From Tricharina praecox (Eukaryota): 64,000 bases of DNA. Below the pieces are notes generated by a model, which saw only the letters and a program-made list of their open reading frames with translations, did no database searches and had not been told where the DNA came from. The stretch is taken from the NCBI RefSeq assembly GCF_024521635.1, contig NW_026250410.1, positions 62,001 through 126,000 on the forward strand, in the 5' to 3' direction. Positions 4,318-34,265 of this stretch are shown here, piece by piece. How positions within the stretch are numbered: the stretch's first letter is position 1; every line of letters begins with the position of its first letter. The translations under genes and the position numbers were made by a program.

Positions 4318-4600
4318 TCTTCAGCCCCACGTTTGCAACCTGAAAGCCAACGAAAAACATCGTATATAAGAAGCCAAAAATTCCCTGGCGCCGCCGAAGC
4401 AGGCCAGGAGCAGTCAAGGTTTAGTTTTCAACCAGCAAAAACCAGCTCTCGGATTAAATCCTCACTGAGACTTGTACTGCCCTTGCACTAGGATGGAGAA
4501 GAAAGACGGAGGTGCGGAGGGGAGAGGGGGGTTTTATAGGTGTTGTGGGGCGCTAGTGCGGGTCGAAAATTGGCCGACGGGGTCATTGTTCGAGTGATAC
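4318..4600 (-). repeat. U4 snRNA cassette, copy 1 (~283 bp)
   Basis: Aligns end to end with 25081-25371 (opposite strand) and 33978-34265. Ends are GTATCACTCGAAC...GGGGCTGAAGA. Confidence 0.9.
4368..4494 (-). ncRNA. U4 spliceosomal snRNA, copy 1 (3' end approximate)
   Basis: Minus strand reads AUCCUAGUGCAAGGG (U6 stem II arm), UCAGUGAGGAUUUAAUCCGAGA (k-turn 5' stem-loop), UUUUUGCUGGUUGAAAAC (stem I arm), a cUUCGg-capped 3' hairpin and Sm site AAUUUUUGG (4382-4374). TATAAAA at 4538-4532. Confidence 0.9.
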
Positions 4601-4742
4601 CTACTTGAAAGCTCATACAAAGGCATCTGGGAGGGACGGAGCATACCACGCGAGTGAAAGTGGATGATCCGACATGAAGCGGCGCACACCTGGATGTTTC
4701 CCGCCATTTCCTCACTCGCAAGCGGTATTGATTGCTATATGA

Positions 4743-5025
4743 CAGATTGAGGCGTCCGGAGCACATGAAGGATTTCTCCTCATGTCCGCTGTAAGGCGCT
4801 AGAAATGGTGATGTTTCAAGGAGCACTGTTTGGAGGAGTCAAGAACTCGGTCATACGAACTATATCCGGAGAAGGAGATGTGTTCTCACCGGCGGGTCTA
4901 TCTCCTGATGGCAGACAAATTCTGTATATATAGAAGCGCACCGGCCCGTAGTAAACGAAGAAGCAAGCAACAAAGCAGTCACATTTTCCTACCTATCCTC
5001 CTATCGATCTCAGTAGATTCGACAA
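4743..5025. repeat. Second dispersed repeat family ('BD'), fullest copy
   Basis: 4743-4935 is reverse-complement homologous to 33716-33908. 4922-5025 is reverse-complement homologous to 25384-25490. All copies share the core CTGTATATATAGAA. Confidence 0.8.
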
Positions 5026-5144
5026 CTAAAAACCATGGAGACGCCGGGAAGCAGCCGTGGATCGAGAGTGCAGACCACAATCGATTAAGAAGCCGATGTC
5101 ATCCTCTCGCACAGCGGCCAGAGCAACAACATTTGGCCAATGGC

Positions 5145-5520
5145 GCATGCATGCCTCACTGCATGCATGGCCAGAGGAAAGACCTTTGCTCTGAAAGGAA
5201 GAAGACCTCCGTGTATAACGTGGGGGGGTAGTAAGCCAAGTTATACGCGTATAACTTGGGGCGGTAGTAGACCAAGTTATACCTTCTTTGGGTTTTTTGT
5301 TTCATCGTCACGAAACCGTCTGTAGCCCGGTTTGGAGATTCTTGGGCCTTGACCATGCATGCGGCATGTCTCTCACACATGTGGCATGCATGGCCGGGAG
5401 GAAAGACCTTTACCCTCTCACAGCAAAGGAAGAAAAACCCCCGCGTATAGCCTGGGGGGTAGTAGACCAAGTTATACTTTGTTTTTTCTTCCTCGTCAAC
5501 ACGAAACCGTCTGTCACCCA
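5145..5520. repeat. Degenerate tandem duplication containing three 33-34 bp palindromic-arm units
   Basis: Duplicated units at ~5145-5328 and ~5353-5519. GTATAACTTGG-N12-CCAAGTTATAC-type units at 5213-5246, 5249-5282 and 5445-5477. Confidence 0.8.
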
Positions 5521-6876
5521 GTCTCGGAGAGGCCATCCAACGGGGGCAAGTCGGCTCTCACCCGACTTGGACCCCCGGAGGAAGGGGGAAAGAACTTTGC
5601 CGGCAGCAGAAGAGAAAACCCCGTCCTTGGACCTTTTCTACTCAGCCTCGAGGGTTAGATGCGTCTATTGTCGCTGCAACCGTCTACTTTGTAGACAGGT
5701 TGCACGGATCCCTCAGTTCCTCGCTGCTACGGCTGAGCAGGATAGCTCTGTAAGGTTATCCTGGAAGTAAAAAGAGGGCGGGGGGAGAGAGCACGTACCT
5801 CAAAGAGTAGGCCTCGGGGCCGATATCGGACCGTGAAAACTAATCATAAGTCAGTAGCATGAATCAACAAGTAGGTGGTCTCGCACGGGAAAGAAGAGGA
5901 AAGGGTTCATGTATGGGTACTGATTGTTCTGGATAGCGGTTGGTTCTGGATGTGTGGAGGAGAGGGAGGAAGAGTTGGTAGGAAAGGTGGAATTTTATAA
6001 GTGAAGTGGGTAAGATTCCAAACAACCACTGCTAGCGCACTAGCCGCGACTCCAAAGCTAGCTTTTCAGCAAACAACCGCTTCATTCCAAGGTGTCGGCA
6101 TGTGCTTGGCATCACTCGAAGTCACTCGAAGTGCGAGTGAGTATTATTGAATACGATCCCACAGCGCGGAACAGAGACAAACGTGAGATGGTGGCGAGCA
6201 CCTTTGCTACTCTCCATATAAACTCTTCTAAGAGAACGCATGTGTAACTTCCACCATCAGCACTTGCTACAACTCGGCATCACCACTAAGTCCACAACGC
6301 CGGTTCTAAAACAAAAACATCACGTTTTTGCACACGGCTCTTTCTTTTACCAACACCAACTCTATGCTGCCGGCGGGGTTGAGAGGAGATACAGCGCACA
6401 CAGAAGAAAGAGCAGATAGAGGTTGAGCATCTAAGGTATTCTGTAGAGAATCATGAGAGAGAGCGGCCTCTCGGACAGCTTTTCAGGCTGAGTTCACTCC
6501 CCCGCTGGCTGCCGTAATAGTTACCATCCATACTCCCTCCATCCGTTTTCTCTCGCCGAAAGCTTTTTTTATTTAATCATCTTAAAATTCGACCTTGGTA
6601 GATCATGGTTGTAGTACACATCCGGTTCCGCCCTACTGTCTCCGACCGCTAGCTGTGAGCTCGATACACGAGAGATCCTAGGGAAATAAACAGATATAAA
6701 AGGAGAGAGAGAGAGATAAATATGGAGATATAAAGAAAGCGCTTAGAAACCTGGCTCCCATCCTTCCTTCTTCCCTAGCACTGGCTTAGGACAGGTTCAG
6801 GTAGGCACAGGGATTGTGTGAAAGTTATATACCATGAGAGGTTGTTAGAGTTCATTTGACGTTGTGAGATCCTGCT

Positions 6877-7086
6877 TCACAGCCACACATCTGCACCCCG
6901 GCGCGGCTGTGTGGCGCCATGCCGCCGGCAGTGTCCTAGCGTCCCAGTCCATTCCGGGCCCTGTAGGGTACCCGTCCTCACTTCGCCAGCCCGGAAGACT
7001 ATATTCATTGTTCTCCTCAGCCCTACTAATCCCTTCCCGTCTCGGGCAACCTCAAAGACGGACTGGACGGACGGTTGACCGCCCTG
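6877..7086 (+). mobile_element. Solo right end of the hAT-type element at 39953-43250
   Basis: Colinear with 43042-43250 and ends in the TIR GGACGGACGGTTGACCGCCCTG. No matching left TIR or TSD found nearby. Confidence 0.85.
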
Positions 7087-10000
7087 GGCGGAGTAGGGAG
7101 AGGGGGCGGAAGGTGTCTTTTCCTAGTGTCATTTTCTTGGTGCATTCTATCTTCATTAAGGACACAGGCCGTGGCGGAGGGTATGGAAAGCCACACTGGG
7201 CCGCTTGATGAAAGTTGGGTTGGACAGTGATGTGGAAATGGAGTGTGTATGGGTGGATATTGCCATGATCTAGATACGTCGCATGCAATCAATCATTCAA
7301 CAAAAAAAAGGACTGGGTAAGCTGTACTCTAGTATGTACGACCCGTGGCGTAGCAGCCTGCAGGTAGCTGGACTCTAGCTTCGGCGTCTCCACGCAGTCA
7401 CTCGCATCGAGTGACATATAGACAACCACCCGTTCCTATTCACGAAACTCAATTCCCACCAGTCAGACATGTCCAGAACCTCATGTAACGTCTCCTCCGT
7501 CTTTTCCTTCACACATATCATCATTCTTGGGCGAGTCTCAGCGCATATGTGTGCCGAGGCGTGCCGAGTCGTTTTCTGGCGGGGATCATGGGATGGCCTA
7601 CCTATAAAACCAGCGAGAACTCGTCATTATCTCTTTCTCTTCTTCTCTTCTACACATCACTTCATCATCCTTTCTATCCTCCTCATTTACTCATCGCTCT
7701 CTCATTCTCAAGACCAACTTACTCGTCCTTCTCTCCTACACATTGCTTCCTCGCCCTTCTTCCCCTCTCTTCCTCATCACTTCGCCATCCTCCGCCATCC
7801 TACTCGACATCCGGTTGATCAGGTGAACTGACTGGCGGTTCAATCGAATGGGCAGTTCAATAAATCAATCGGTTCGGCACGACGAATCAATGCAACTTTC
7901 TCCCTCGTCTCCACTTACTATTCGACTACTGGATGAAGGGAGCCTAACGAGACTACGGACGTGAATACCCTGTGGGGGGGGCTCCAGCAGCACACCATCT
8001 AACTGGAGGTAATCACTACAGTCACTATACCATCTGAGACTCACCGTGGCCCGGTACACTAGCTAACTACTCGCAGCCTCCGGCCGATTCTCCCTGATCA
8101 CTCGCATATTTTGTCTGAAAGATAGCAGCGGCACACACGTATTACATCGCAACGAATTATCACGTACGTATATGAGTACCTAGTACGCTGCGACCAAATC
8201 CGGTATCACGACCATCAACCAACAGACCTTCCCCCGCGCCCCGCAGAATCAGACTTCAGTAACCACAACGACAAGTTCATAATGACGAGGGTCATAGACG
8301 GAGATACAGGTAGTGCCTCGACTCTCGACGGGTCTAGACGATACTATAGGCGCTCTGCGGCTCGCTGATCGGGGAATCCTGTGAAAGTTCGAAGTTCTCG
8401 AGTGATGAGATATGAGGTGGTCACCTCCAGCAAGCAAGCACACTCGATTTTGCAGGGTATATTATCAGAGATCTACTGTGTCCTTCTCACAGCGGAGTCT
8501 CCTACTCCCATGTGCCACACCCGGGAAGCATAGGTAGGTAAATGGTTGGACCATCTCAATGACCGGCGCCGCAGTGTATCGCCAGAAATCGGTAGTTGCA
8601 GCGTAATCTAGTGGAAGTATGTAGTGGTTATATCGCAGCCCGCGGACTGCACAGTGCAATTGCGGAACCGAGTGGGCTTCGCGGCGAGTAGGCAAGTCCG
8701 GTAATGGTGCTAGTGGTGGTAGTAGTGGTAGTGGTGGCGCCTGGCAGGCTGGCAGTCGAGGGATGGGGTCCTCGATAACGGATGGGTTAGGCGCACATAC
8801 GAGAGAACGATGGTACTATGCGATCTTCGGCACAGTGTAGCCGCTGGAAATAAGGAAGCAGCTAATAGAACGAAGGAGATGTCCTTGGTGGTGGTCTTGA
8901 CATAGCGGCTGATGGCAGTAGTAGCGGATGGGGCGGGAGTAAGTGTAGAGGGATGAGGGGGTGGAGGGATTCTCAAGGCAAGAGCAGCAGGGAAGAAAGT
9001 ATTGGGTAGGAGTCTTGCTATTGAAGTAGAACATCTTTACATGATGTGGGAGATCTCAGGATCTCAGAATTGAAGAAAGGTCGTTGGGTCAAGAGTAAGT
9101 TTCTCGCATAGGAGCTGTTTAAAGCATGGTGAAGAAGAAGAAGATGAATCAAGGGAAGGAGTAGGTTGAGTGGGAGGATTGGTAGGCCACACGGGTTCAT
9201 AAACTCCCGTCGCTATTTCCCAGCTCCAAAAAACTCCGATATATCCTAGTGGTATATAAGGGCCTGTCCTGTGCGGGCTTCACCGGTTCAATTCCCTGAA
9301 TGGAGTTTCCTGGAAGACTCACCTCGAGGTGGAAGGTTTTTTGTTGTGGGCTTGCTCGGAGTTGCTGTTTTTTTTTTACGCTGGTATACATGCGACGTCA
9401 CTCGGTGATCGAGTGACGGTCCGTGGAGAAGGTAGTTGTATTCGCCTACGAGAAGAATTTTGCTGAAGTCTGTGTATATCTATCTTTGAGCATGCTACTC
9501 ATTCTTGCCATCGAATCCAGCCGGGTCGATTGCCACTGACCGAGTGTGTGGCTTAGATGAATCGTCCGAAGCCAACCGACATTCCTCTAGAATGAGCAAC
9601 TTTCCTCAAACCCGCGCGTTCGTCACAGCCAGTTCCCGTCTTAGTACCGGTACATAGCACCCATCCTCCTTGTAAACAGCAAAACCCTCCACCGTTTTAC
9701 TACCAACATTGGTGCGTCTTCCGCAGCCCAAACTATTCTCGCCAGCGCAGAAGGAAGCGCTCCCGGAGAGGTCGGTCGCCAGTCGTGCCATTTCGCATTC
9801 ATTGATCGACGACAATAGTTTTCTTCTCGCTGTTGCTATGTACTTATGTACCGTCAGATGTGCAACTGTATGTAGTAGGCAGAATATCCTATCCTATCCG
9901 ACAGACCCTAAGCTCGAGACGCCCCGACAACCGCGCCGCACCTCATACTATAAACAAGGAGACCAGGGTAAGATCCGCGATACAAGATCGCTCGAGTCGC

Positions 10001-13000
10001 GGAAGCCAACTCGGCCGCTGTCTTAGAATAGGAATGCACCGTGGGCTCTGGGGTGATATCGAGCCTGTTTCCTGGTTCCTCCGCCTGGAATATCTACATA
10101 TGTATCGCGGCCCCAACTAGGTAGTCTGGGAGTTCCGGAACAGTTCATAGAGTAGATGCTCGTCTCCAGAACGAGCGATGGTTGGAGCATAACTGGTCCA
10201 CAGTTTCGACTCTTGAGGACGGCGCGTGGCTGGTATTGATGATTGATCCCGTTGGGGCTGGGAAGTAAACGTGCGATAATGCTTCATAGGGGAAGCTCCG
10301 CTGGTAATGAGTAGACCCATAGAGTACATCTACACGGCGCGGCAAATGTCATCATAAGGGTACATAAGCCGGTGCGTATTTACATACCAGTTAGACCTCC
10401 AGATCTCAGAGCAGTATCCCAACGCGAACGCAGTCTACGGCGCAGTGTCGGGTGCCTATATACATAAACCCATTAGTTACATACTCCTACATATCTAGAT
10501 GCATTACTTACCAAGTCCCAAGTCCCTATGTAAGTCCCCAAGTCCCGAACTCCGCATCCCTCCCCCGCCAAGCGCCCAAAATCCGGGGTGAAAAAACGGC
10601 GCAACCCTGTCCGCCACTAGAGTATATAGTTACCGCATCACCACCGCACCACCACCGCACCGGGTATGCATCGGAGCATTGACTCTTAAACTGAGCCTTG
10701 ACTCTTGAGGACTCTAGAGGCTTCGCTAGATATTTTTATTTTTGGCGGGCGGGGACGGGGAGTTGAGGGCGGGGACGGGCATCGGGGACGGAAGGTTCTC
10801 GGCCGGCGAGCATAGCGTTCTAACTACCGGGATTCGGCAGAGGGATGATCCGCGGGGGTAGGCGGGGGTAGGTGCGCACGCACGATGCGTTCGCAGCGGG
10901 ATGAGGTTCCCCGTGGGGAAGGGAAGCTTTACTTCTTTACTTTCTGTAGTAGGTATGACAAATATCTGGACCGACAACATGCAACGACAACGACAACGGC
11001 AACGATGGCAGCATTCTTTTGCATTCTCTGGCAATCAATACGCAGGGAACATGCGTTGATGCGTGAAACCGGGCGAAAGGTGCCCTTCGACCGGGCTGCG
11101 TGGGGTCCGCGCGGGTATGCGAGTATGTAGAGTATCCGGATGACCGCAGGCAGAGTGCACGCTCTGTCACTCGAGCACGGTGCTGTGTGCGAGAGTCTGG
11201 GATGCGAGAGATGTGTATAAACAAGACGTGTATCATCATCTGTATTGAATCCGGACGCCGCCGACAGTCGACTTGCATGGAGCTCGAAACGAAACAACCA
11301 TGCCACTGGACCTGTCACTCCAGTAACAAGAATCGTATCATACCGGCATTCAGACGGGGCGGTGTGTTATGGTGTGGTGTGATCGCCAAGTGTGCGGGCG
11401 GACATCGGTCTCAGTGTTCGCCGACGGTGGGCCGTTGGCGGCGGCAGTCAAGACTCAAGATGAAAAGAAAAGGCCAGTTCCCGCTCCTTGCCCTGCACCG
11501 GCAACTTAAGACAGATATGTACCGGTATGTAGCGGTGGCTGTTCTACACGTTCAGATTCCGCACTGGCAACGGCAGTGGGAATGGCGCCTGTATTATACA
11601 CATCACCATCTATCTGCTGGAAAAAATATCGGCAGAAGTCATCCGCAACCAACTATAGAGAGAGCCCATACTCTTTCCATCATTCGCTCGCTCGTTCCAC
11701 ATGCCCCGGATAATCTTCATGCACATGCTAGCCAGGTCCGCAGTGTCGGCCCCCAGTCTCGCACTCCCAGCAGTAGTGTAACGGCGGGGAAGCTTGGGGA
11801 TGTGCTCCGTAAATAGCGGGGTTGGCTCGAGTAAATCACGCATGTGCTTGCGCAGCGCAGCGCGTTGGATAAATGATAATTCCTCGAGCTAGAGTACCTA
11901 GAGAAGAGGAAAGAAGATGATAGCAGTTGTGATATCTATGTAGGCAGAGGAGTGTAGATATCGAGAACTCGAGATAGAGTACGATACGGTAGGTACGGAT
12001 AGTGATGATAGATAATTCCCGTCTCACGATTGGCCGCGGGTGAGATAGATACGAGGTGTTCCAGAAGCGCGGCAGAAGCCCATCCTCCGCCGAGGGTCCG
12101 GGCAGCGCCAGCCATCCTGGGAAACGCAGCAATCAAACCGGCAAAAGAGAGGGGACAAAGAAAAAGAAAGCTCCGGATTGCATGATGAGGTTTGGGCAGA
12201 GATGTGATGAAGAGTTTTTCTTCTTCTCTTTCTTCCTTCGATGGGAATGGGGCGAGTGGAGGAGAGGGAGAGGGTGGACGCGCCTCGCCCGTGACAATGG
12301 TGTCAGGCCGGCAGAGTCTTGGCCGTCATCGTTCGCGGACCGTGACCATACCGCGCGACCTCGACTCCCCAAGACGTAAGCAGACATTTGGAAGCCAGTG
12401 GTGATGGAGAATGCCCGCTCCTAGCCCTCGGCCGTTGTCAGATGTCGGGTCGGCTGTCGGTCGGCACCATCAACGCTGGTCCTCGGGCCAGAGTACAAAC
12501 TTGAGGGCAGTTACATATCAATAAAGTCGCTCGTCCGATGCTTTCCCCTCGCCGTTCTCATTCCTCAACTCCTCAGACCGCAAACGAAGCAAAACGTAAT
12601 ACCAACCTTTGAGTCTCCGCTCTTTCGCCGTCTTCGATCCTATCCACAGCAGCAGAGCATCGGCAGGTGAGTTGATCGTTCTTCTTGGCCAACCTGGCCC
12701 TGCACTGGCGGTGGAGTTGCATACTGCGTGCGCGAGGCAAGCATCCATAGGCTAACTGGGGGTGTGCCATAAAAGGACATCTAGAGCAGCAGAGAGCTTT
12801 GCGAGTCGTCAGCATCAGCAGTTGACCATCTTGTCGTATTCGAACGGGCCAGCGGAAGAAAAGGGGATAGCATTTCACAGAAGCAGAAATTCGAAAGGAT
12901 ACTCGTACGGACGACCACGGAGCGAAGAAGCAGAAGGAGAGGAAGCCGTAGTTACTCTACACGAAGCGTCACTGCGTCAGTCAACTTGCCAGGACGGGAC

Positions 13001-13085
13001 ACAGCTGGACCGCCCTAAGCCAAAAGCAAAAAAAATAGACCATCCGCCGGAGTACATAATAACCCCGCCATCCGCCGCCGCAAAA

Positions 13086-19294: not shown

Positions 19295-21018
19295 TCAGTC
19301 GTCAAACAGGCCCTCGATGGCCTTGTAGTTGATCTTCTTGCTGTAAGCCCTCCGCTTCAGCATCTCCTTTGCGGACTCAGCCGGCGAAGCAGCAAGATCT
19401 GGCGCGCTCGAGTCACGCGGCTTCGTCTTCTTTCTCTTGCGCATGCTCTTGACGATTCCCATCCTCGCGTCGGAGGCGGCCTTGAGGCGCTTCACCTCCT
19501 GATCGCGGATCCAGTCCTTGTTGAACTCGGTCCAGATCTTCTCCCTCATCTCGGCTTCATTGTCGTTAAGAATGGCGCCTTGAACTTCCCAGTCGTCGTC
19601 GACGTCGTTGAGATTTTCGGGGTCGTCTGAGACTAGGCCCTTGGGGAGCGCGGCGAGTGTCGCTTCGTGTGCGCGGCGGAGCTCCTCGACGATAGCGGCG
19701 GAGTCCGAGTCGTTGACGAGTCCGGAGATCTCGCTCTCGATGGTCGACATGATAATGTCGTTGCTCTGCTCGTCGGGCATGAAGATGCCGGAGTCCTTGA
19801 TGGGTTTTGGGTGCTTGCTAGTAGCGGGAGCGGTGGGTGGTGGAGTTGCGAGTCCTTCCTCGCTGCCGACAAGGGCGGGATCGATCGGTATCTCGGGGAT
19901 CACGAAGCCGTCCGCGTCTCTTCGGAGTTCCTGTTGCTCTCCGGTCTTGGCTTTCTTCGCTGGACTGCCACCAGCTTCTTCGGTCTCCTCCTCGGCGTCG
20001 CTGTCAATGACTTCACCGTCGTCGTTGACCTGCCGTACCCTCTTGCGCTTCGACTTCTTCGGGCCGAAGCTAGGCGGATCGTGTTCTTGCTCGAGCCATA
20101 TGCTTCTGAACTCCTCCACCGTCAGGTCTCCACTGCGAGTCTCCTTGAACTCCTGTAGTCGCTTATGGATGGTGAGATCCGCAACCTTGACCACGTAGAC
20201 CACCTCCCTGATGCTCCGCCTGAAGTTGTTCATTCTCGCCGCGAGAATCAACGCGGCACCACAGATACCCGACGGCCGACGACCTTGCACGATCCAATCT
20301 CTGTTCATGCGCTTGATGAGTCTGAGGGCGTCCTGGGCGACCTTGTACTGATCGTTTCCGAACTCGAGATGCTTCGCGAAGCGATGGATGTATATCGTGG
20401 GGTCGATGTGCGGGAGCTTGAGGTTCAAGGTGCGCAAAAGCTTGAGGTACGTCTGTCCGAGGGTGAAGACGTTGATGTGAAGGATGTCCGAAAAGTCGAT
20501 CAGCATGTGCGAGGACTTCTCCATGCGGCACGCGATGTAGAGACAGCATGCGACGACGTATTGCGCCTTGCGGCCCTTCGTAAAGTTGTGTGTCAGAGCA
20601 AGGGTGTAGTTGCGCTGCGCGATCTCGGCATAGTGGTCGGGACAGGCGAGGACCGCGGCGAGCTGGTTGATTCTTCGGCGGGCTGAGGGAGCGCGTCGGT
20701 CAGCCAATCGGTTCGCGTGCGATCAAAGAATGCGGGGGGAAAAGCATAGAGACACGTGCCTTCAGCGATCGTCTGCTCGCGACTCTCGATACTCGTTCCG
20801 CTGCGATATCTTCCACCGGTAGAGGCGTGAGTCTGACCGGCGCCGACACGACTTCCCTGGACGGTTGCAGCACCCGCACTATTTTCGCCGAAAGTGATTT
20901 CCGAGACAATGTGCGATTCGTTGACGACGGTTCCGCAATTGGTGCAAACTACCTGACCCGAGGAATCATCGAAGTCGGCAGGATTCGAACAGCCACAGTT
21001 CGGGCATGTGTTGGGCAT
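19295..21018 (-). CDS. BRF1: TFIIIB subunit Brf1 (2 exons)
   Basis: N-terminal Zn ribbon CPNCG...VCTNCG, cyclin-fold repeats (FTKGRK, WIVQGRRPSGICGA) and C-terminal SKKINY. Intron 20759-20683, probably GC-AG. Confidence 0.95.
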
Positions 21019-22912: not shown

Positions 22913-24079
22913 TTAAAGCGTCTTCCATCCCAGTGGCCCCTTTCCCCTTCCCTTCGTCTCCCTAACCAGACACTTCACCATCCCATCCTGCTCCCTTAAC
23001 TCACTCACCTCAGGATAGAATCTATCTCTCTGCTCAAGCGGCACGCTCTCCAGCTCTCTATCAGTCGCACAAATCTCCGTGATAACCCTCTCCCTCCGCT
23101 GCATTCCCGCAACCAATCCAGTAATACTAAAATCCTTCTCCATCACCTTCTCCTTCACAAGCTCGTCTTCCGGATCAACACCAACCCGCTCTGCCAACCG
23201 CTTCCAAGCAATCCCATTTTCGTTCGACCGCCCAAAAGTATCCGCAAACGCCTCATAAACGGCGAGATGATACCGGCGCCACACAGCGTCTCGCTCGGGA
23301 TGGTACACGACGACTGAGGGGAGCGGCCATGCTTGCCTGTCGTGAAGCCGGAGGAACTCGGCGGGGAAGGGCGCGTCGCGCGCATGATGGAAGTTTGGGT
23401 AGAAGGTTTGGAAGAACTTTACCACCGATTGAAGTTTAGCGCGTGAGGGTCCTTGCTGTTTCCGTGCCCTGGGGGTGCTTGGGGTGCTTGGGGTGCTTAG
23501 GGTGCTAAGGGTAGCGGTGTCATATTTTTCTCGGGTTTTAGAAGCTCGTGGTGGTTTTGGCTGCGGGCGGGCAGGTGTCGGGCTCGTAGCGGTGCGGGTT
23601 TGGGTGTCATCTCCGTCCTTTTTTCCAGGCGGGAAGCGCAGTTTCGATCGGGGTTCCGATTGCGGCCGAGTTGCTGTCGAGGGCGCTGCAGCGCTCCTGT
23701 AGCTGGAACTGGGCCGTCGCGGGGGACCTATGGGTTCCGGTGCTCTGGCTGTGCTGAGTGTGCTGGCGTCTTTTCCAGGTCGGGGCGGGAACCGCGGCTC
23801 CACTTTTGGTTGCCGCTGAACTCTCGCAGCGGGCGTTTTCAGGCTCGTAGTGGCGAGGGTTGTGATATAATTCTCACGTTTTCGACGCGTCAAAGGCAGC
23901 TCTGCTTCTGATTGCGGTCGGGCTGCTGTGGGGATCGGTTCAGGTTGCTGCTGCGAGACTGTTCTGGGGGGCGCTTTTGGGTTCCATTTTGTTCGCTGCG
24001 TCTGGATTGCCGTAGACGGCGTTGGGGCGCTCCGTGTACTGAAGACGAGTCGGCGCAAGGCGGGGGATGGTGTGGACAT
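22913..24079 (-). CDS. Hypothetical 388-aa protein: basic, low-complexity N-half and globular C-half
   Basis: Long single ORF. The R/S/T-rich N-terminus resembles a mitochondrial presequence. The C-half (FFQTFYPNF...EFLRL...W...TFG...WKRLAERVG) looks like a folded fungal domain. Confidence 0.7.
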   Translation of the reverse strand: MSTPSPALRRLVFSTRSAPTPSTAIQTQRTKWNPKAPPRTVSQQQPEPIPTAARPQSEAELPLTRRKRENYITTLATTSLKTPAARVQRQPKVEPRFPPRPGKDASTLSTARAPEPIGPPRRPSSSYRSAAAPSTATRPQSEPRSKLRFPPGKKDGDDTQTRTATSPTPARPQPKPPRASKTREKYDTATLSTLSTPSTPSTPRARKQQGPSRAKLQSVVKFFQTFYPNFHHARDAPFPAEFLRLHDRQAWPLPSVVVYHPERDAVWRRYHLAVYEAFADTFGRSNENGIAWKRLAERVGVDPEDELVKEKVMEKDFSITGLVAGMQRRERVITEICATDRELESVPLEQRDRFYPEVSELREQDGMVKCLVRETKGRGKGPLGWKTL

Positions 24080-25142
24080 CGAGTGAGGATAATTTTGCGG
24101 TGGTGGGGGTGAGTGATGTCGTACAGCAATGCATAACTACAGGGTTTAGGTGGCGCGTCTACTCTATGTAGGACAAAACAACCGCGCGCCACTCCTCTAT
24201 TAGCTTCCCGGCTCCTGACGCCGATTGCATGCCGCTCTTTAGGCTGGGATTCCCGAGCTATGTATCGTTCGGCATGTTCGCGACGTGAGCTTGACTACAG
24301 AATACCAAGCAGGTCCCCACGGCCAACCCAATTGGCTGGATTGGCTGCACTGTCCCGTAAGCGCACATACACATCGAGGAGTGGTAATCGGCATGTAAGG
24401 GTTCGAGATACAAACACAGCTTTGCTCTTGATATGGCTTTGATGATGATGGAAAACAAAACAAAACAAGACAAGCACGGAAGACATAAATGGCCACAGCA
24501 AGCAGAAACTAAAAGTTGGATGCACATCATCAAATCTCCCCATCACAGGAAACTAGCATCACCTCCGCGACAGCTGGTCTCACCAGGTCTGTACAAACTC
24601 CACTCCCTCACCAATAAGTCCCGCTCGTGTCCCGCAAATTCCCACTCAGGCTCGCTGGGTCCCCAATCCCCCGGCCGCTGGTCCCACTCGGGTCTCGCCA
24701 AGTCCCGCTCAAGTCCACTAGAGTCCTACTCGATCGGTGCTCTCTGGAAAACGCTAAGTCGCCTCTGCTCCTGCGCCCCTCAATATGTACCTATTGCAGG
24801 GTCCACTTTAGCTATACGGAAACGAACCGTCGGTGATGACGGACGAAGGATGGTCGAAGATAGCAGAGGAGACAAGGTCTAGAAGGGCATTGGTTTAGCT
24901 GCAATGACCGCAACTTTCTACAGCCCTCCTCAGCCTCGATTCCCACAATCAATCTTTCACTGCGGGAAATGATGACGTTAATTTCTTGACTCCGGCATAT
25001 GCAGCCTTGCTCGGCTGTGCACGCAGCCTCGGTTTAGCCTCGTGCCTCACGACAGGGCAGCAATCGTCACACAAAACCAGGTATCACTCGAACGATGGCC
25101 CCGTCGGCCAATTTTCGACCCGCGCTAGCGTCCCACAACATC

Positions 25143-25149
25143 TATAAAA
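25143..25149 (+). promoter_or_regulatory. TATA box of U4 copy 2
   Basis: TATAAAA followed by a pyrimidine tract, about 50 nt upstream of the U4 5' end. Conserved in all three copies. Confidence 0.75.
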
Positions 25150-25193
25150 CCCCCCCTCTCTCCCCCCCCTCCTCTCCTCTCCCTTTCTTCTCC

Positions 25194-25321
25194 ATCTTAG
25201 TGCAAGGGTATTACGAGTCTCAGTGAGGATTTAATCCGAGAGCTTGTTTTTGCTAGTTGAAAACTAAACCTTTGACCGCTCCTGGCCTGCTTCGGCGGCG
25301 CCAGGGAATTTTTGGCTTCTT
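25194..25321 (+). ncRNA. U4 spliceosomal snRNA, copy 2 (3' end approximate)
   Basis: ATCTTAGTGCAAGGGTATTACGAGTCTCAGTGAGGATTTAATCCGAGAGCTTGTTTTTGCTAGTTGAAAAC...CCTGGCCTGCTTCGGCGGCGCCAGG-G-AATTTTTGG matches fungal U4 architecture: stem II arm, k-turn, stem I arm, 3' hairpin, Sm site at 25307-25315. Confidence 0.92.
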
Positions 25322-25383
25322 ATGTACGATGTTTTTCGTTGGCTTCCAGGTTGCAAACGTGGGGTTGAAGAAAGATGTACACT

Positions 25384-25490
25384 TTGTCAAATATACTAAG
25401 ATCGATTAGATTATTGGTAGGAGAGATAATATAGATGTTTATTTGCTTGCTTCTTTTCTACTCTGGGTCGGCGCTCTTCTATATATACAG
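25384..25490. repeat. Partial copy of repeat family BD
   Basis: Reverse complement aligns with 4922-5025 (CTGTATATATAGAAG...AAGAAGCAAGCAA...TCCTACC...ATCGATCT.AGTA.ATT.GACAA). Confidence 0.8.
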
Positions 25491-25850
25491 TTGCTCCTCC
25501 CCGTCTCCTTCCGAACTTCTGCCCACAGTGTTTTCTGCTGCATTTTGCATTCGGGGCAGTTTTTGAAGAGGTGCTCCCTGGTCTGGGTCTTGCAGCGACA
25601 CCATCCTCAGCGGACGTCTGGGCGGTATTTCATCCATTGGAAGTACTGGCCGGTGAGGAAGTGTCCTGTCTTCAGCTGGTAGAACCTTGAAGCCAGGCGC
25701 TTGGAGGCCATGGCCGGGATCGGGTCCAGTCTCTGGCCAGGTTCTCTGCTAAACCGGTAATTCTCGTTGGTAACCTGGGCGTCGGCCCATGCTTTGGCTT
25801 CTCTCCACATACTTTTCGTGATGCCTCGTCTCAGGTATGCGAGTGACGGA
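25491..25850 (-). pseudogene. Decayed non-LTR retrotransposon (LINE, Tad1-like) ORF2 C-terminal fragment
   Basis: SLAYLRRGITKSMWREAKAW...LASRFYQLKTGHFLTGQY...R*GWCRCKTQTREHLFKNC is the post-RNase H region plus CCHC knuckle. It carries an in-frame stop and is truncated at both ends. Confidence 0.85.
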
Positions 25851-26385
25851 GGAGGTAGCGATTGATCACTAGCCTATTTCCCCCCACGACACAGGATATC
25901 ACGCAGCGAGTGAAAGCTGATGAAGAGTCTAGTTCAACGACTTCAATCCTTTGCAGCTAGAAAGCTATGTGCTTACCTCGCGCTGTACTTACCACTTACC
26001 TCCGTAGATACCCCCGTCCATGCGATAAAGTAAACAACTTGAAGTAAGTCACCCACGACCCAGAACGCACTAGCGGCACCGCCGTCTCTTCTCATTCGAG
26101 ATGCCAGGAATCGTGTATCGCAGTCGCTCTGCTTTGACTGACGCTACTTACCTCGGAGAAAGTCGGTTTACATCTTTTGGAGTCACGTTATAACACACAC
26201 TTCCGAGCGGTTGCTCCTCCAGCACTGATCCTGGTGCATCCCTAACAACCTCTTCAGTCCGACCCCACCATCGGAGCAGAAGCGACACCCTTCAGCGAGC
26301 ACATATCGACCGCAACAAATCCGCACCGTCGTTCGGCGGGGATCAACGCCGTTTCACCAACCCCCTCCCCTTAAAGGTCGATATA

Positions 26386-26781
26386 ATGTTCGACATCACC
26401 GATCTCATCAACCTCACCCATGGCAAGCGTAAGCCGGTCATCCCGCTGCGCTCCGACACGGGCACGACGTTCGACACCATCTTCCTCCGGAGCCACCGCG
26501 AGGAGATCCTGTCGATTTTCCTCGCCTTCAAGCAGACCGAGCAGCTGCTGGACTCGATGGAGGAGCACACGATAGCCAAGCACTTCGAAATCCTCCTGCG
26601 CATGCTCCAGCACCGCCGGCAGCTGCGCCAGTTGAAGGAGTGGCTGGTGCACGACGGCATCGGCGCCACCGGCGACGAGAGGGAGATTCGCTGGATGTGC
26701 CGCATGTGCCAGGCGATTTATGAGGGCATCCGGAGGAGGATGGGCATGGGACGGAAGTGGGGGATGACGGCGGGGTTCTAA
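26386..26781 (+). CDS. Hypothetical helical protein (131 aa)
   Basis: ATG-initiated ORF with gene-like GC3-rich codon usage. No recognisable domain. Confidence 0.55.
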   Translation: MFDITDLINLTHGKRKPVIPLRSDTGTTFDTIFLRSHREEILSIFLAFKQTEQLLDSMEEHTIAKHFEILLRMLQHRRQLRQLKEWLVHDGIGATGDEREIRWMCRMCQAIYEGIRRRMGMGRKWGMTAGF

Positions 26782-28138
26782 TTGGGGTTGTGCGGAGACG
26801 TCCCGAATTTTCCATAGGGAGACTTAATAGTAATTAAAATGTGTTATGGTGCAGTGAAACTTTTGCAACGTGACGATTTGAAGATGTGTTGATGTGGAAT
26901 TTAGAAATATACACCGCTCAAGATGCCTTCAAAAGCATCGGCGACATACTGGAAGTGCTGAGCCCAATACGACACAGTCATCACTATTAATCACCCGAGT
27001 AGTTACAAGGAGTGATCTGATATGAAGTCCACCCTTCATCGACCTCGAATGAAGCTTTTTCGCGTCACTGAATTCCATGTAACCCAATCTCTGCGGACCT
27101 ATATGATTTGCCGAGCTGCGGCGTCACTGTGCCTAAACTCAATCAAAATAGCTGGTGGGTTTCATACTTTTATGATTCCATCTTATCTGCATATGTAGAC
27201 GGCGGTACACCATGCGTGGAGACACGACGTTGAGATGAGCTAATCGGTTGCAATTATTGCATGGTTAACTACGGTACTCTAGGTACCCCACAAGGTCCCC
27301 TGGCTTCCCCACAAAATGCTAACTTTAAATGACCTTTCTTTTTGGTTCAATCATGGATTGCATGCGACCCGCCTGAATAACCATGGACCTACTCCAGGAT
27401 ATTCTGTATATTAATCGCTGGTGATGCTTAGTGTTGTAGCATGCCGTCTTCGTTCTGGAAGGTTCCTTAACGGGAACATCCCAACCATATTCTTCAAACC
27501 ATTGTTCTTTATTTGGATGCAAGGAGACGACCTTTGTCTGGAGATCGTTAGTCCTTGAAGTGGTGGCGCTATTACACTCCCGGGTCTGGAGTAGGTGGTG
27601 GTCAAACGGGTGAGGGACCACGGTGAGCCTAAGGAGGTGCGAATTGTGGTGTCGGTGGTATTCACTGGATGGCTTGCTGTCATTCTTGTAAGTTTGGAGG
27701 TGATTTGGTTTATGGCGTGGGCCAATGGCTCGTAGGCTAGAAACCCGCCATTTTCTGTGGGTACTACTACTGCTAGGTAGTTCGTGTATCTCCTCTCTCC
27801 AAAATGATTAAGTCATAAGAAAAAGTAAGCATTAACTACCTAGGCGAATCTCACTCACCTGCAACGAGCTACAGAGCACCACCGTGGGAACGGCCACGCG
27901 ACTGCACGGGTAATCTTCCGTGAAGACTTATGCTTTGCTCGATGAACCTGGGAAAGCCTAAGTGAAATCGCAAGTGAACCGCAAAAGTCAAGCGATTCAA
28001 CAGACGGCACAATCTACCCTTACGGTCAATCATCGCGTATAGCTCGGGCGTAAAACGTCCCTCGGTCGTTGCTTTTATTATGCGTGACAATTTCCTCCAC
28101 GTCATGAGGACCCCTCTGCATTCCCACAACCCATCCGA

Positions 28139-29054
28139 CTAGGTCGCCGACCTCTTCGCAAATTCGACTCTCAAGATCAGATGTCCATATCCGACACCAT
28201 CCATCTTTACGCACGCCCTCTCAGCATCGCTACGTTCCGCATAACTGACAAAGGCGAAACCCTTTGCTCTGCCAGTCTCACGATCCGTCGCCAAAAAGAC
28301 TCTGGTGACCCGTCCAAATCGCTCGAACATATCCCTGAGATCGTTCTCTTCTGCGAACTCCGATACGTTCGTAACACGGAGAGTGGCAAGGTCGTCGCGC
28401 TCGCGGTTGTTGCTGCTGCCTGCCATCGAGTCGCCCGCTCCACGTCCTTTGCCTCGGAGATGCGGCGCGATATATGCGCCTCCGACCTTCTGCTCCGTGG
28501 GCTCCGGGTCAGAAGCGCCACCGGCCGCAGCATCGTCAAGTGGTGGGAGTGTGTCCTTGAACGGACATCTGGCGGTAAAATGGTCACCTTTACAGATACG
28601 ACAAGCGACTTTCGATCCCTTGAGGGCGTTCTTCAAAGCATCCTCGGCGGGGTCTTCCTCCCTGGAGTTGGATTTCCAGGTAGCCGAAGGGCGGAAGATG
28701 ATATTTTCTCCGACGGTCGTGGTAGACATGTCAGGTCCGGGGGCGTGTCCTTTCTCTGCGCCAAACTTGGCCCACTCCTTACGCTCGGCGACCCGTGGGT
28801 TGACATGCTCCTGGACCACTGTCGTGCGGATCTTGCGCATGGTCTTGATCTTCTTTCCTGCATCGCTTAGGCGGTATGTGATGATTGTCTTGGTGCCGTC
28901 GGGGTTGGCAATGATTTGCTGCGGCGGCAAGGCCGAGGGATCATCAAATTCTTCGTCGTCGGCCCAGTTTGCGCGGCTGTAGACATAGCGGGGTCGGTTA
29001 GTGGGGAGGGGTCTTCAAGAGCCACAAGAGAGCTTACGAGGTGTCGGGGGCCAT
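28139..29054 (-). CDS. TIF35: Translation initiation factor eIF3 subunit g (2 exons)
   Basis: [15 protein letters not shown] (intron 29037-28977), Zn knuckle [14 protein letters not shown] and C-terminal RRM ([30 protein letters not shown]). Confidence 0.96.
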
Positions 29055-29357
29055 GGCTATTGAGTGATCTTTGATATTGCGATTTAGTCGTTGCTGTGGT
29101 CTCTTGCTACTCGTCGATACTCGTTCCCTTCGTTGCTGTGGTTGGTTGGATGTTGGTGGGATCGGAATGGAGAGGCGAGATTGTGTGGCCACTGAAGTTC
29201 TAGGACGGTTGAAATCCTGAGTGGGTGCCAAGATTTCGCGCCTGCGTTGAGCATGCGAGCTAACGCACGGACCAACGCGACGACCCCACCAAGTTACTAA
29301 TTCCCGCCCCGCGACCAGTTCTCCCGCCGAAGATATCACCACATACAGCTGCCCGCC

Positions 29358-30554
29358 ATGCTGCGACCACGGATCTTCCGCCCGCCTCCGTACCTTTTCA
29401 CCGGCGCAAAGGTGTCTTTCCTCCGGCCAATCCAGCTTTACCGTCCTCTCTCGCCAATGACCATTACTCGCTCCGCCGGCGTACACCATCGTCGTCCGGC
29501 CCCATCTCGACGTGGAGACCCCGTCGTAATCCAGCGCGAACCACCACCAACATCCGAACCACCACCAACATCCGAAGAACGTTATATACCAGAAGAAGAA
29601 CGCGAGCCACCAATGGCAGGCCGTGGCTTTCTAGTCCTTTTCGCCTTGATCGCCGCACCGATCACGTTTGCCTACCAATTCCCGACCCGGATTCTCCCAC
29701 CAGTGCCCGACCCACCAGAGTTCAAAAACCTCTCCAAGACACCCCTCACGCTCGGCACCTGGGTCTCCTCACCCTGGCAGAGCTGCCAACTCCTGATGTT
29801 CCGTCTCCGACGCGGCGAGTACGTGGTGCCTCTACGGAAGAACTTCTCGTTCTCACCGCTGAACTACCTTGGGATATCGTCGCAGCCTAATGATCTACTC
29901 AACCTCGCGTCGGGCAACGGAGGTGCTCCTGAGAAATGGCGCTGGTGGACCTGGGGAACTTATATGTTTGCGCACGGCGGGTTATTCCACTTCGGATTTT
30001 GCTTCATGGCCATGAGTTCATTGGTGCCGATGTTCGTGGCTCGCTATGGAGTGGGCCGGACGCTAGCGTCATTCTTTGGGGGTGGTATCGGTGCTGCGGC
30101 ACTGTGCTGCCAGATAGAGGATTATCTCCACGGACAGGATGTGAAGGATGGGAAGGGGATACACATCGTGCAGCGCAAACAGGCCACGCCGAATGGCAGT
30201 CAAGTAACAGTTAACGAGCTCGCGCCTGTGCCGGGGTACAAGGGGATGTTTATTTCAAGCATCGGCTCCAGCGCAGGGCTAATGGCGATGATCACGACTA
30301 CCGCGATCGCGATGCCGCAGTCGAAGTGGGGCCTCATGTTTTTGCCTTTTACTGTGGGCGCGAGACCAATGGTGGGAGCGTTGGTGGCTTGGGATTTGGC
30401 CGGTGCGCTAGGGTATGCCCCAGACATGGGGGTGGGACATGTGGGACATCTCTGTGGAGATGTAATAGGGCTTTTGATGTATGCGCTGTGGTTGAGGAGG
30501 TTGCCGGTTAGTAGAGTAATGGCATGGCGGAGGAAGAGAGAGGGGTATTGGTAG
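29358..30554 (+). CDS. Rhomboid-family intramembrane serine protease, probably mitochondrial (PCP1/PARL-like)
   Basis: Presequence-like N-terminus, YMFAHGGLFHFGF, catalytic GSSA, GHVGHLCG and several TM segments. Confidence 0.82.
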   Translation: MLRPRIFRPPPYLFTGAKVSFLRPIQLYRPLSPMTITRSAGVHHRRPAPSRRGDPVVIQREPPPTSEPPPTSEERYIPEEEREPPMAGRGFLVLFALIAAPITFAYQFPTRILPPVPDPPEFKNLSKTPLTLGTWVSSPWQSCQLLMFRLRRGEYVVPLRKNFSFSPLNYLGISSQPNDLLNLASGNGGAPEKWRWWTWGTYMFAHGGLFHFGFCFMAMSSLVPMFVARYGVGRTLASFFGGGIGAAALCCQIEDYLHGQDVKDGKGIHIVQRKQATPNGSQVTVNELAPVPGYKGMFISSIGSSAGLMAMITTTAIAMPQSKWGLMFLPFTVGARPMVGALVAWDLAGALGYAPDMGVGHVGHLCGDVIGLLMYALWLRRLPVSRVMAWRRKREGYW

Positions 30555-31192
30555 GAGAGCATCGGTAAGAAGGACCTGTACATACCTACATGGTATACTT
30601 ACTGGAGATTAACTCCCCTAAAGGGTCTTCAACCATCTCTCCAGCAATCTTTTTAGACATTTCCGCGACGGACTTGTTGGTTCCTCAATACCAGGAAACC
30701 AGGTTGCTCCGTACAATCAAATACGAACCTGTAATAAACAGCAGGTGTTGATGAGGCGTCAATTAACGTCATGACTAAACACAAAGAACTGACCAAAAGT
30801 TTGTAGAAGTCACTCTTCGAATTTCTACCTTTCCAGGAGACTTTGATCCGACATGTATACGCCTATTTACTTGGCTATTAAGTACTCAAGTCCATACCTA
30901 AGTAGCCATGCAGTCATGCTGATCGTCCAGTAGACGCCTGTGTGAGACTGTACGCAACGATGTCTGTCTTTCGAGTCTATCAGATATCCTACACGCTTCT
31001 GAGCCTAAGCATCCGTCAAGACGCCTCGGTCACTCGGCCCCGTGCCCAGCCTTCCACGTGGCCTCCGCTCACCGCGCCACTGTGGCCCCGCCACACCTGT
31101 GACACCACGACGTCACTACCCCGCCACCAGCGTGCTTTTGTCGCGGTTCCCAGAGCTGCTTTTGCACCGTTCGCACCGTTCTCATCCACCAG

Positions 31193-33283
31193 ATGGCGGC
31201 CCGCATTCATCACCTTGCGGCCGTTTCCCGGCGATGGACCAGCAATCCTCGACTAATGCCAAACCTTCCTCCTACTCCTTCTCGATCTACATTCCGGGGC
31301 CTTCGTACTCGTCCTCGAGCAGTACCAGCGCCTCCTCCTATTACTCCTACTGCTGGGGTGAATCTATCACCTGAGCAGCTGACCGCGCTCAAACTCGTCG
31401 GGGAGGGAAAGAACGTGTTTATCACTGGCCGCGCCGGCACGGGAAAGTCTAAACTGATCGCGGAGATTCGGATTCAAGCGTGGAACAGAGGACGGAAATG
31501 TATCGTTACTGCGCCTACTGGTGTTGCTGCACTGCTGGTGGGTGGGAAGACGCTGCATTCGTGGCTTGGCGTGGGGCACGGTGACGAGCACTTTCAGCAC
31601 TATATCGATAATTTAAATCCCCCATCGAGATTATCGTCACAGGAGAAGGAACGTGACGACTGGCAGCCTTGCTCGAAAGTCAATTTGCTGATAATTGATG
31701 AGATATCAATGGTGAGTTTTCACAGTCGGGTTCGGTAACTGTCCCTTGTGTGGGTCTATCTTGATGGATGGGTGATACTAGGTACATCCGCACCTTTTCA
31801 ATTTGACCAACTATTTGGGAAAGATGATGAGGGGGAACAAAAAGCCCTTCGGTATGTACAGCATGCATGGGCCACACGGATTGTTAAGTCTGAATACTGA
31901 CTGTTCCCTAGGTGGGATCCAAGTTGTGGTATGCGGTGACTTTTTCCAGCTCCCGCCGGTGAGTAAAACGATCGGGGGTATCTACGAACGGTGTCCCAAC
32001 TGTGGTATGTCGAACGAATTCATGGCTGCGGGGAGACGGGGCTGAAGACTGACAGACGGCTTAAACCATTCCAGGCCTCGACCTTCCTCCCGACTGCCTA
32101 TTACCTAATGATTCACTACTCTCCGGATTACCAGACGGAGTGCACTCTCAGGGTATCGACCAGTACCGGTGGCGATGTTGCACCGATCCCACGTGCGGGC
32201 ACCTTCACAATGAAACGATCAAATACGCGTTCCAGACTGAATCGTGGCGCGAGGCCGGGTTCGAACCAGTTGTTTTGGAGACAGTTTTCAGACAGAAGGA
32301 TATTAAGTGGATCGATTATCTTGCACGCATTGCGAAGGGGAAGGCGGATGAGAAAGTACTCGATTTCCTGGACGGCCTGAGACGGAAGTTGCCATCAGTC
32401 AAGGGCATCAAGCCGACGAAGCTATACTCGCACCGGGAGAAAGTGGATGAGGAGAATGCAGCGGAGTTGGCAAAACTTCCAGGGCCAGAATATTCATTCC
32501 GTTCTACCGACTCGAAGACAGTCTATCAGAAAAAAACTTACTATCCAATCCCTAAACGGGGAGTGAAGTGGAAATGGGATTTGGTCGAGAAATCCACTCC
32601 GATTGACCCCGATGATCCCAACAATGCAGGTATGCAGACCGAACTCCCACAGATGACGAGAGGTCCTGATTACTCGCGTAGATTTCCTGAGAGCCCTTAA
32701 ATCGCTCCAATGCCCTATGGAACTCAAACTCAAGGTTGGAGCGCAGGTGATGCTGCTGGTTAACATGCTCGAAAAAGGGCTCGCAAACGGGTCACGGGGA
32801 GTCGTCACCAAATTTGAACTACACACGTTACCACAACCTACCGAACCCAGCGGATCTGCCAATGATATCAATGAACCGACATATCACGAAGTCTTACCCC
32901 CGGGCGGGACACATTTTATTCCGGTGGTACAATTTGTGAACTCTGATTATGAAATCCCGATCTTCCCCGAAACCTGGAAAATCTCACACTACCGCAAAGC
33001 CAGCCACGAACATCTCAAGACTGTACTATACCGATCCCAGATCCCACTAGCACTTTGCTGGGCTACTACAATCCACAAGACCCAGGGCCAGACTCTCGAC
33101 TATGCCATCGCCGATATCTCGCAGTGTTTTTCCCCGGGACAGGCGTATGTGGCACTCAGCAGGTGCAAATCTCCACAGGGGCTGCAGATTGTGGCGGGCA
33201 AGGGGAGGGAGGCACTGAAAAAATCGTTGTGGGCTGCGTGGCAGGTCGTCAAGTTTTACAACATGTTCGACAAGCAGAGATAG
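31193..33283 (+). CDS. PIF1/RRM3-family SF1B DNA helicase with a Cys-rich insert (5 exons; start could be 31256)
   Basis: Motifs FITGRAGTGKS, APTGVAA, GKTLHSW, IIDEISM, GDFFQLPPV, VFRQKD, LKVGAQVML, LANGSRG, WATTIHKTQGQTL and GQAYVALSR. Introns 31712-31781, 31852-31911, 32005-32074 and 32630-32681. Confidence 0.92.
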
Positions 33284-33698
33284 GCGAGGAGTGGTACTCG
33301 GAATGATAGAGTAGAATAGGGGCGCTTTTGAGGACGGAAACATAGTCTACCTATTCTCCGGGAATTTTTGGAATCTATTACATACTTAGTTGCTCAAAGC
33401 ATGTATCCAATCGCTGACAGGGTCGGCGAAAGAATCGGACCGGGCGTGAGCCCGGTCAGGGCGGGGTGATCCCACCTTGGTACTCTATGTCAGAGTTTGG
33501 ACGTCCGGAATGGGTCGATGACGACCGCAGCAATTCTGGCAGTCCACAGCAATGCTGACAGACAATGTATCAGTGCGCACCGTCATCTGTATGCTATACC
33601 ACGACCTAGGTATGGGAGAGATTCGAGATTCTGTATATATTGAGGACCTCCGGTCCGGAGAGATTGCGCAGTAATTAGAACACTATGAGCATTTGAGA

Positions 33699-33908
33699 TT
33701 GTCAAAGATACTGAATTCTATATATACAGAATATATCTGTCATTGAGAGATAGACCGGCCGGCGAGACTAGACAACAGAAAAATCTCCGGATACAGTTCG
33801 CATGATCGACTCCTCGACTCCTTCAGAACAGTACTCGTTGAAACTTCAGCACCTTACAGCGGACACGAGGAGAGATCCTTCATGTGCTCCGGACGCGGTA
33901 ATCTGACG
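33699..33908. repeat. Copy of repeat family BD with an internal deletion
   Basis: TTGTCAAAGATACTGA (matches 25384ff) is fused to TTCTATATATACAG... The rest is reverse-complement homologous to 4743-4935. Confidence 0.8.
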
Positions 33909-33977
33909 GAGATCCTCTTTTTATTACACTCTACTCTACTCCAGCAACACGCTGCCTACTTATTCAATCATGATCAT

Positions 33978-34265
33978 TCTTCAGCCCCACGTTTACAACC
34001 TGGAAGCCAACTAAAAACATCGTACACCTCAAAGAAGCCAAAAATTCCCTGGCGCCGCCGAAGCAGGCCAGGAGCGGTCAAAGGTTTAGTTTTCAACCAG
34101 CGAAAACAAGCTCTCGGATTACATCCTCACTGAGACTTGTACTGCCCTTGAACTAAGATGGAGAAGAAAGAGAGGGGTGCGGGGAGGAGAGGGGGGTTTT
34201 ATAGGTATTGTGAGACGCTAGCGCGGGTTGGGAGTTGGCCAACGGTGACATCGTTCGAGTGATAC
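33978..34265 (-). repeat. U4 snRNA cassette, copy 3 (~288 bp)
   Basis: Same boundaries as copies 1 and 2. TATA at 34203-34197. Confidence 0.9.
34032..34159 (-). ncRNA. U4 snRNA, copy 3 (possibly a pseudogene; 3' end approximate)
   Basis: All U4 modules present, Sm site at 34046-34038. Both U6-pairing arms carry substitutions (GUGCA>GUUCA; UUGCUGG>UCGCUGG). Confidence 0.85.

Follow-up and report, generated by a model that had tools for sequence, protein, structure and literature searches.

Dispersed 5S ribosomal RNA (rRNA) genes of fungi evolve by birth and death; they number in the tens per genome and are transcribed from an internal RNA polymerase III (Pol III) promoter. For fungal U3, the accessible text of PMC5832005 describes mostly three or fewer copies, with up to 11, that stem from recent DNA-level duplications and whose paralogs retain introns, and for U6 the available part of a review gives a mean of 2.3 copies and up to 20 (PMC5855946). 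Here we describe genes for the U4 small nuclear RNA (snRNA) in a 64,000-nt stretch of the Tricharina praecox genome (the window; C83:62001-126000, NW_026250410.1), whose assembly comprises 38.4 Mb in 104 contigs, denoted by C-numbers. The species belongs to the Pyronemataceae, a Pezizomycete family. A previous reading made from the sequence only had proposed that the U4 genes travel as a mobile cassette; we instead consider it quite probable that they form a small, locally clustered snRNA gene family shaped by DNA-level birth and death. Like the multicopy U3 and U6 families, U4 here has several copies from recent species- or genus-specific DNA-level duplications, and it resembles 5S rRNA genes as small RNA genes that multiply and decay at scattered sites. 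Unlike 5S, the U4 copies are RNA polymerase II (Pol II) genes with external promoters and are clustered locally. No diverged paralog families are described for U3 in the accessible text of PMC5832005, whereas T. praecox U4 appears to have two classes that are each syntenic across species.

An Rfam scan of the window returned exactly three RNAs, each U4 (RF00015), matching the full length of the model (positions 1-138) at 83.6-93.6 bits against a gathering score of 46, so that the proposal of three U4 genes was borne out by the model search it had called for. Copy 1 lies at 4361..4494 on the minus strand (90.3 bits), copy 2 at 25194..25328 on the plus strand (93.6 bits, the top Rfam score) and copy 3, in a syntenic position, at 34027..34159 on the minus strand (83.6 bits). 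All three sit in a shared unit of 283, 291 and 288 bp, respectively, that runs from GTATCACTCGAAC to GGGGYTGAAGA and aligns over a TATA box, and the U4 body has an Sm site (AATTTTTG) and 3-4 private changes in each window copy. The alignment revealed no poly(A) in the three cassettes, the longest direct repeat at the junctions was 2-3 nt in all three copies, short of a target-site duplication (TSD), and the 5' end was unrelated to the reverse complement of the 3' end, indicating that a terminal inverted repeat (TIR) is absent. On these points, including the TATA box and the private changes, the earlier description held.

Overall, stems I and II with the genome's U6 were formed in cofolds by all 12 U4 sequences (for example, -36.9 kcal/mol for copy 1), with copy 3 the weakest (-31.2 kcal/mol versus -36 to -40 kcal/mol for the 11 other sequences). 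Two changes in copy 3, G9T in stem II and T58C in stem I, are predicted to weaken U6 pairing. Both copy 1 and copy 2 appear intact. In a fourth copy, which lies outside the window, changes cluster in the U4 5' stem-loop and also affect the GA of the kink-turn (positioned from the Rfam consensus). This copy and a relic on C18 are decaying, and copy 3 possibly so. Judged by sequence, the window genes are genuine duplicated U4 splicing-RNA genes. One contig over copy 3 contains a plus-strand GT..AG joint (33670-33730); it may be read-through from the opposite strand and was not used for expression.

Genome-wide, DNA and Rfam searches agreed on five intact-scoring U4 genes and one relic, the latter on C18 at 37.7 bits and hence under the cut-off; in the Rfam search 42 of 1554 candidates were scored, and all genome counts given here for U1, U2, U4, U5 and U6 are lower bounds. 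Four complete cassettes are located on C83 (24930, 66318, 87081 and 95978) within 71 kb, while the fifth gene, on C1, has the trailer and a different promoter. The copy-number check that had been suggested thus points away from a large family.

The case for mobility had leaned on similarity that stops at identical bases in all copies and on a star-like pattern of changes, and both gave way once flanks and the fourth copy were compared. Copies 1 and 4 are 84% identical over 565 bp (copy 4 stretch, C83:24802-25365; flank identity, 83%). Copies 2 and 3 share ~180 bp upstream (24886..25061, plus strand, versus 34543..34743, minus strand; local alignment score of 63, with none of 500 shuffles as high). 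In copy 3 this original flank lies beyond repeat H (34266..34542), a ~280-bp dispersed repeat with at least 45 genome matches including itself, which sits directly upstream of the copy's TCACTCG and masks the homology to copy 2. On the other side, copies 1, 2 and 4 stay aligned for a further 13 bp beyond the 3' end, where a fragment of another repeat, module D, interrupts copy 2. Eight of nine flank comparisons were negative overall, with no flank homology to the relative above shuffles, and the interval immediately upstream of copy 2 (24765-25080) had no repeat match. The star-like pattern is produced by construction, because two-state sites among three sequences are always private, and we rejected it as a burst signal; with four copies, two of the three shared U4 sites split (1,4)|(2,3) in agreement with the flanks, and body site 38 conflicts with this split. 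The 13-mer GTATCACTCGAAC had 87 genome matches with at most one mismatch versus 75 for its reversed control, which indicates no hidden family of cassette ends; five matches were exact, of which four are the C83 copies. By hand count, the first 10 bases (GTATCACTCG) were intact in 48 of 82 one-mismatch matches, which suggests that they belong to a widespread promoter motif or to a repeat not yet recognised.

The ends of the unit coincide with functional elements and are not transposon ends. Its 5' start is TCACTCG, 59 bp ahead of TATA, and motif comparison placed the promoters at 4495..4600 (minus strand), 25081..25193 (plus strand) and 34160..34265 (minus strand) for copies 1, 2 and 3. In copy 1 the promoter consists of TCACTCG (4591-4597), CGGCCAA, CTAGCG, TATAAAA (4532-4538) and a pyrimidine tract, with motifs that also occur upstream of U1 and U2 genes. 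After four of 43 genes were dropped for having no TATA match, TCACTCG was found at most 130 bp upstream of TATA in 12 of 20 U1, one of 14 U2 and the four C83 U4 promoters, or 17/39 in total (shuffle mean, 0.5; maximum, 3), and CGGC(C/G)AA and CTAG(C/T)G were present in 21/39 and 14/39 promoters. In place of TCACTCG, GCCCTAAGCCC repeats, resembling Tbf1-type sites, occur at the U4 gene on C1 and at most U2 genes.

At the 3' end, the trailer is a bulged hairpin of ~42 nt ending in GAAGAAA, located by folding and covariation at 4315..4359 (copy 1, minus strand), 25330..25374 (copy 2, plus strand) and 33975..34019 (copy 3, minus strand). Across 12 sequences (five from the T. praecox genome and seven from metagenome contigs, leaving out the near-duplicate loci L064, L065 and L067), 96.1% of 180 cells were paired compared to 42-53% in slid controls, and 4/15 pairs had changed on both sides in a compensatory manner, with 2-4 of 500 shuffles as high. 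The hairpin is common to the unlinked C1 paralog and other fungi, and U2 trailers fold into a similar one (13/15 copies located automatically). The automatic search missed the trailer or misplaced its start in copy 3, the C18 relic, two U2 copies and most U1 copies, and these rows were not counted as hairpin evidence. Fission yeast snU1, snU2, snU4 and snU5 have Pac1-bound hairpins directly downstream, with Pac1 needed for termination, according to the accessible text of PMC8421224. As in the U1, U2 and U4 cases described there, the T. praecox hairpin directly follows the mature snRNA and has a small loop and a bulged stem, although the predicted stem of ~15-16 pairs compares with stems of 23-32 nt in fission yeast (PMC8421224, same portion). 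By this analogy, the U4 trailer hairpin is probably an RNase III/Pac1-type processing signal.

We also looked at U4 in related fungi by a pattern scan of metagenome contigs, which yielded 10 loci (L-numbers). At L063, a U4 gene lies between carboxylase genes and rhomboid/eIF3g, in the interval and orientation of copy 3. The corresponding anchors in the window, assigned with Pfam, are the eIF3g (minus strand) and rhomboid (plus strand) genes on one side (28142..30551; 77% nucleotide identity to L063:3567-6017) and biotin-dependent carboxylase genes on the other (carboxyltransferase, minus strand, and biotin carboxylase, plus strand; 34921..39121, matching L063:1055-2150). Overall, the L063 anchor genes are 77-81% identical to the window in nucleotides, and the L063 rhomboid protein is 75% identical to the entry taken as the window's own, with identity to named proteins reaching 46% at most. 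Two further U4s lie on the same contig ~16 kb away (L062), L068 holds two tandem U4s and may be a chimeric assembly, and synteny with the C1 copy is seen at L061/L064 and L066. In the U4 tree, C1-class genes of different species fall into a single clade (100/99), and the C83-type copies of the relative form a group of their own (99/99), distinct from the T. praecox copies. Cross-species similarity has the same 3' end and a 5' start at GTCGGCCAA; in the relative, a CCCTAA element takes the place of the T. praecox TCACTCG. These patterns point to copy 3 occupying an old locus common to a related fungus and to two U4 classes, C1-type with the GCCCTAAGCCC promoter and C83-type, each syntenic across species. 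The sequence-only reading had itself stated that few copies at syntenic positions in relatives would mark an old local cluster, and this is essentially what we found.

Taken as a birth-and-death family, the fallback offered by that reading, the copies would have arisen as follows. As synteny shows, an ancestral U4 resided between the rhomboid and carboxyltransferase genes (the position of copy 3), with a second old locus on another contig. Judging from the shared flanks, DNA duplications of a few hundred base pairs, flank included, would have made the remaining copies within ~70 kb, for instance by tandem duplication plus inversion or by repeat-mediated ectopic repair in repeat-rich intergenic DNA. 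Selection, perhaps together with gene conversion, would keep the unit alike, that is, TCACTCG/CGGCCAA/CTAGCG with TATA, the U4 RNA and the hairpin, whose probable cleavage by an RNase III (Pac1/Rnt1-like) would generate the 3' terminus and halt Pol II as in fission yeast. Similarity would seem to stop at fixed bases because the flanks decay and gain small-repeat insertions. Such evolution would leave some copies decaying, like copy 4, the C18 relic and possibly copy 3, and we found intact and decaying copies together with lineage-specific duplicates, the relative's copies clustering by species.

Several observations weigh against this account. Pairs 1/4 and 2/3 show no upstream homology to each other above shuffles, copies 2 and 3 have no detectable downstream homology to copies 1/4 past 13 bp, and the 5' break between the pairs is sharp, falling within 2 bp of GTATCAC, exactly where repeat H lands. 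The U4 tree leaves the four C83 copies unresolved. Synteny is drawn from metagenome contigs of one or two relatives, and the L062 flanks have no coding match to C83, so the position of copy 2 is not shown to be old. The promoter motifs were chosen by eye from the promoters in which they were counted, and related promoter copies are not independent, with divergent U1 pairs counting one motif twice. Likewise, the hairpin structure was derived from the sequences used to score it, which gives it an advantage over slid controls, and shuffles can be outscored by related sequences even when no structure exists.

The best surviving alternative, which we nonetheless judge unlikely, is that the copies are long-standing paralogs whose likeness is maintained mainly by ectopic gene conversion, in positions that may predate the split from the relative, with a conversion tract limited to the conserved unit creating the sharp ends. 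It would explain why the similarity between copies 2 and 3 is 85-94% in the unit and weak in the adjacent flank, why the relative's U4s match copy 2 in side and relative orientation yet group by species, and why site 38 contradicts the split of the pairs. However, each copy has several private changes, some of them damaging, copy 4 is decaying, the 83% flank identity of copies 1 and 4 is about what selection alone would leave, and the L062 flanks are not shown to be syntenic. Gene conversion is compatible with birth and death and may add to it.

Less likely still is a non-autonomous DNA element of ~285 bp with fixed ends (MITE-like, for miniature inverted-repeat transposable element, or Helitron- or Pack-like), mobilised by a transposase or a rolling-circle enzyme, perhaps with help from a nearby Pif1-like gene. 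Apart from the sharp 5' break between the pairs, it draws on the mixed orientations and dense small repeats around every C83 copy and on the Pif1-like gene itself, a stand-alone helicase with a spliced open reading frame (ORF) of 612 aa between copies 2 and 3 (31103..33283, plus strand; four splice joints in two runs) that is missing from the relative's syntenic interval at L063. But there are no TIRs and no direct repeats over 3 nt, the only four full-length copies are all on one contig, homology crosses both ends and conservation of the 3' end extends to the unlinked C1 paralog and to other fungi. Pfam searches of three reading-frame pieces of the Pif1-like ORF returned helicase families only, and none of the 120 longer Pif1 homologs listed contained PF14214, which we take to be the Helitron Rep family. 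Its homologs are distant (31-48% over most of the exon queried), and the gene is perhaps transposon-derived or relocated. A low-depth contig from run X4 bridges the junction of repeat H and copy 3 (34168-34681), differing from the window at scattered sites and having the identical junction. Contigs of four runs over 23500-36000 break at repeats, and among the joints listed none skips a cassette. Helitrons have a 5' TC, a 3' CTRR, a subterminal hairpin and insertion at AT; by eye and in both orientations, a CTRR-like end was seen in just one of the four copies with homology running past it, and we rejected this type. Of the original inference, DNA-level duplication stands, given the retained promoter and lack of poly(A), but the mobile cassette or snRNA-based repeat family does not. 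Had it held, a mobile U4 cassette would have represented a novel type of repeat.

Retroposed U4 pseudogenes or an element akin to SINEU, the snRNA-headed short interspersed elements (SINEs) of crocodilians in the accessible text of PMC4494074, can be dismissed: dispersal of the copies is all that speaks for them, and every copy has ~110 bp of external promoter and a downstream precursor hairpin, the promoter homology extends upstream, there is no A-rich tail, poly(A) or TSD, and the U2 copies all retain an intron. SINEU is similar in having snRNA sequence within repeated units but is retroposed (PMC4494074, same portion), whereas the U4 copies keep a promoter and 3' processing hairpin and number five.

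U1 and U2 have expanded in local clusters resembling those of U4. At least 22 U1 matches were found, all under the Rfam cut-off and with a canonical 5' end among the matches listed; 19 of these are on C12. Counting 5' ends in C12:230-320 kb gave 17 (cluster at 239-306 kb; L042-L049), of which 10 form five divergent pairs 189-196 bp apart; these pairs share a ~190-bp bidirectional promoter, and the U1 body comes in two or more sequence variants. U2 had 15 matches over the cut-off, including five on C37, three on C32 and two on C31, with further contigs C72, C75, C39, C19 and C9 (L029-L038 and L054-L057). Every U2 copy (15/15) has, 10-11 nt past the AGCTC start of exon 1, a GT-AG intron of 55-99 nt with a branch site at the same position, and U2 was therefore duplicated as DNA. 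U5 was found once (one family match with 48/1130 candidates scored; one DNA match), as was U6, apart from a decayed 5' fragment within unrelated sequence (C72:1145597-1145659, L041; 29.5 bits). By comparison, the accessible part of PMC2441463 puts the whole annotated set of spliceosomal RNA genes in Podospora at 12, a number exceeded by T. praecox U1 and U2 each. U2 introns are rarely reported. U3 and U6 are the only RNAs named as often intron-bearing in the available text of PMC5832005, and a U2 intron is recorded for Rhodotorula hasegawae in that of PMC5855946. Within the literature available to us, no paper dealt with how many snRNA genes Pezizomycetes carry, and the accessible text of PMC5824354 contained nothing relevant; supplements or subscription papers may cover U1/U2/U4 counts or U2 introns. 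Both the size of the U1 and U2 clusters and the presence of two U4 classes are slightly out of the ordinary.

Together, the U4 cluster is an ordinary small-RNA gene family and a further instance of multicopy fungal snRNA genes. It provides a clear case of fungal Pol II snRNA units, bounded by upstream motifs and an RNase III-type hairpin, that multiply locally, and can help to annotate the snRNA genes and promoters of Pezizomycetes.

Copy 1 is flanked upstream by repeat X (4601..4739, minus strand), which is common to copy 4 and whose four genome matches all flank copies 1 and 4, and downstream by a second, more diverged X (4128..4290, minus strand). The resulting layout, X-U4-Y-X with a period of ~496 bp, would be the trace of an old ~500-bp tandem duplication. 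Module D is a dispersed repeat of ~290 bp with a short, imperfect TIR (4740..5034, minus strand) and appears MITE-like from six copies; besides the 5' fragment that truncates the homology of copy 2 (25384..25490, plus strand), a copy occurs downstream of copy 3 (33716..33910, plus strand). Members of the short dispersed families H, D and G cluster near snRNA genes (34266-34542, 4740-5034, 25384-25490, 33716-33910 and 7148-7310), and repeat G also adjoins U1 and U2 genes. Insertion of repeat H exactly at the TCACTCG edge could reflect targeting or selection.

A neighbor of copy 1 outside the U4 unit, module C (5040..6250, minus strand), is a more open lead than the U4 copies. Repeat searches and folding describe it as a multicopy, highly structured unit with TATA, TCACTCG and GCGCTAGC motifs, a GT-AG intron and a U2-like trailer. 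A 668-nt stretch had a minimum free energy z-score of -9.4 (20 shuffles; internal duplications contribute). About 30 copies were present among the 96 matches listed, differing by frameshifting indels and locally clustered on C2 (1.00-1.10 Mb), C28 (0.29-0.40 Mb) and C83 (for example, 129793, 136912 and 152062). Module C had no Rfam match at E<=5 and, by eye, no convincing U3, snR30, telomerase or MRP/P motifs; it is possibly an undescribed noncoding RNA family or a non-autonomous element. More tentatively, and with low probability, Pyronemataceae may hold two U4 classes of ancient origin together with large U1/U2 clusters of variant genes, governed by a CCCTAA-type housekeeping versus a TCACTCG-type promoter (the U1 cluster and module C), supplying condition- or development-specific variant snRNAs and an undescribed Pol II small-RNA family through local DNA micro-duplication, with U5 and U6 kept single. 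The uneven expansion (U1, at least 22; U2, 15; U4, five; U5 and U6, one each), the two U4 classes and module C could matter for variant-spliceosome biology if the classes differ in expression.

Elsewhere, the window contains tandem repeats at 41836-42473, 41312-41482 and 40211-40338 (periods of ~116 bp, 11/14 bp and 16 bp), an NDT80/PhoG-like transcription factor gene (61123-62934, plus strand) and a gene for Brf1 of TFIIIB (19298-20722, minus strand).

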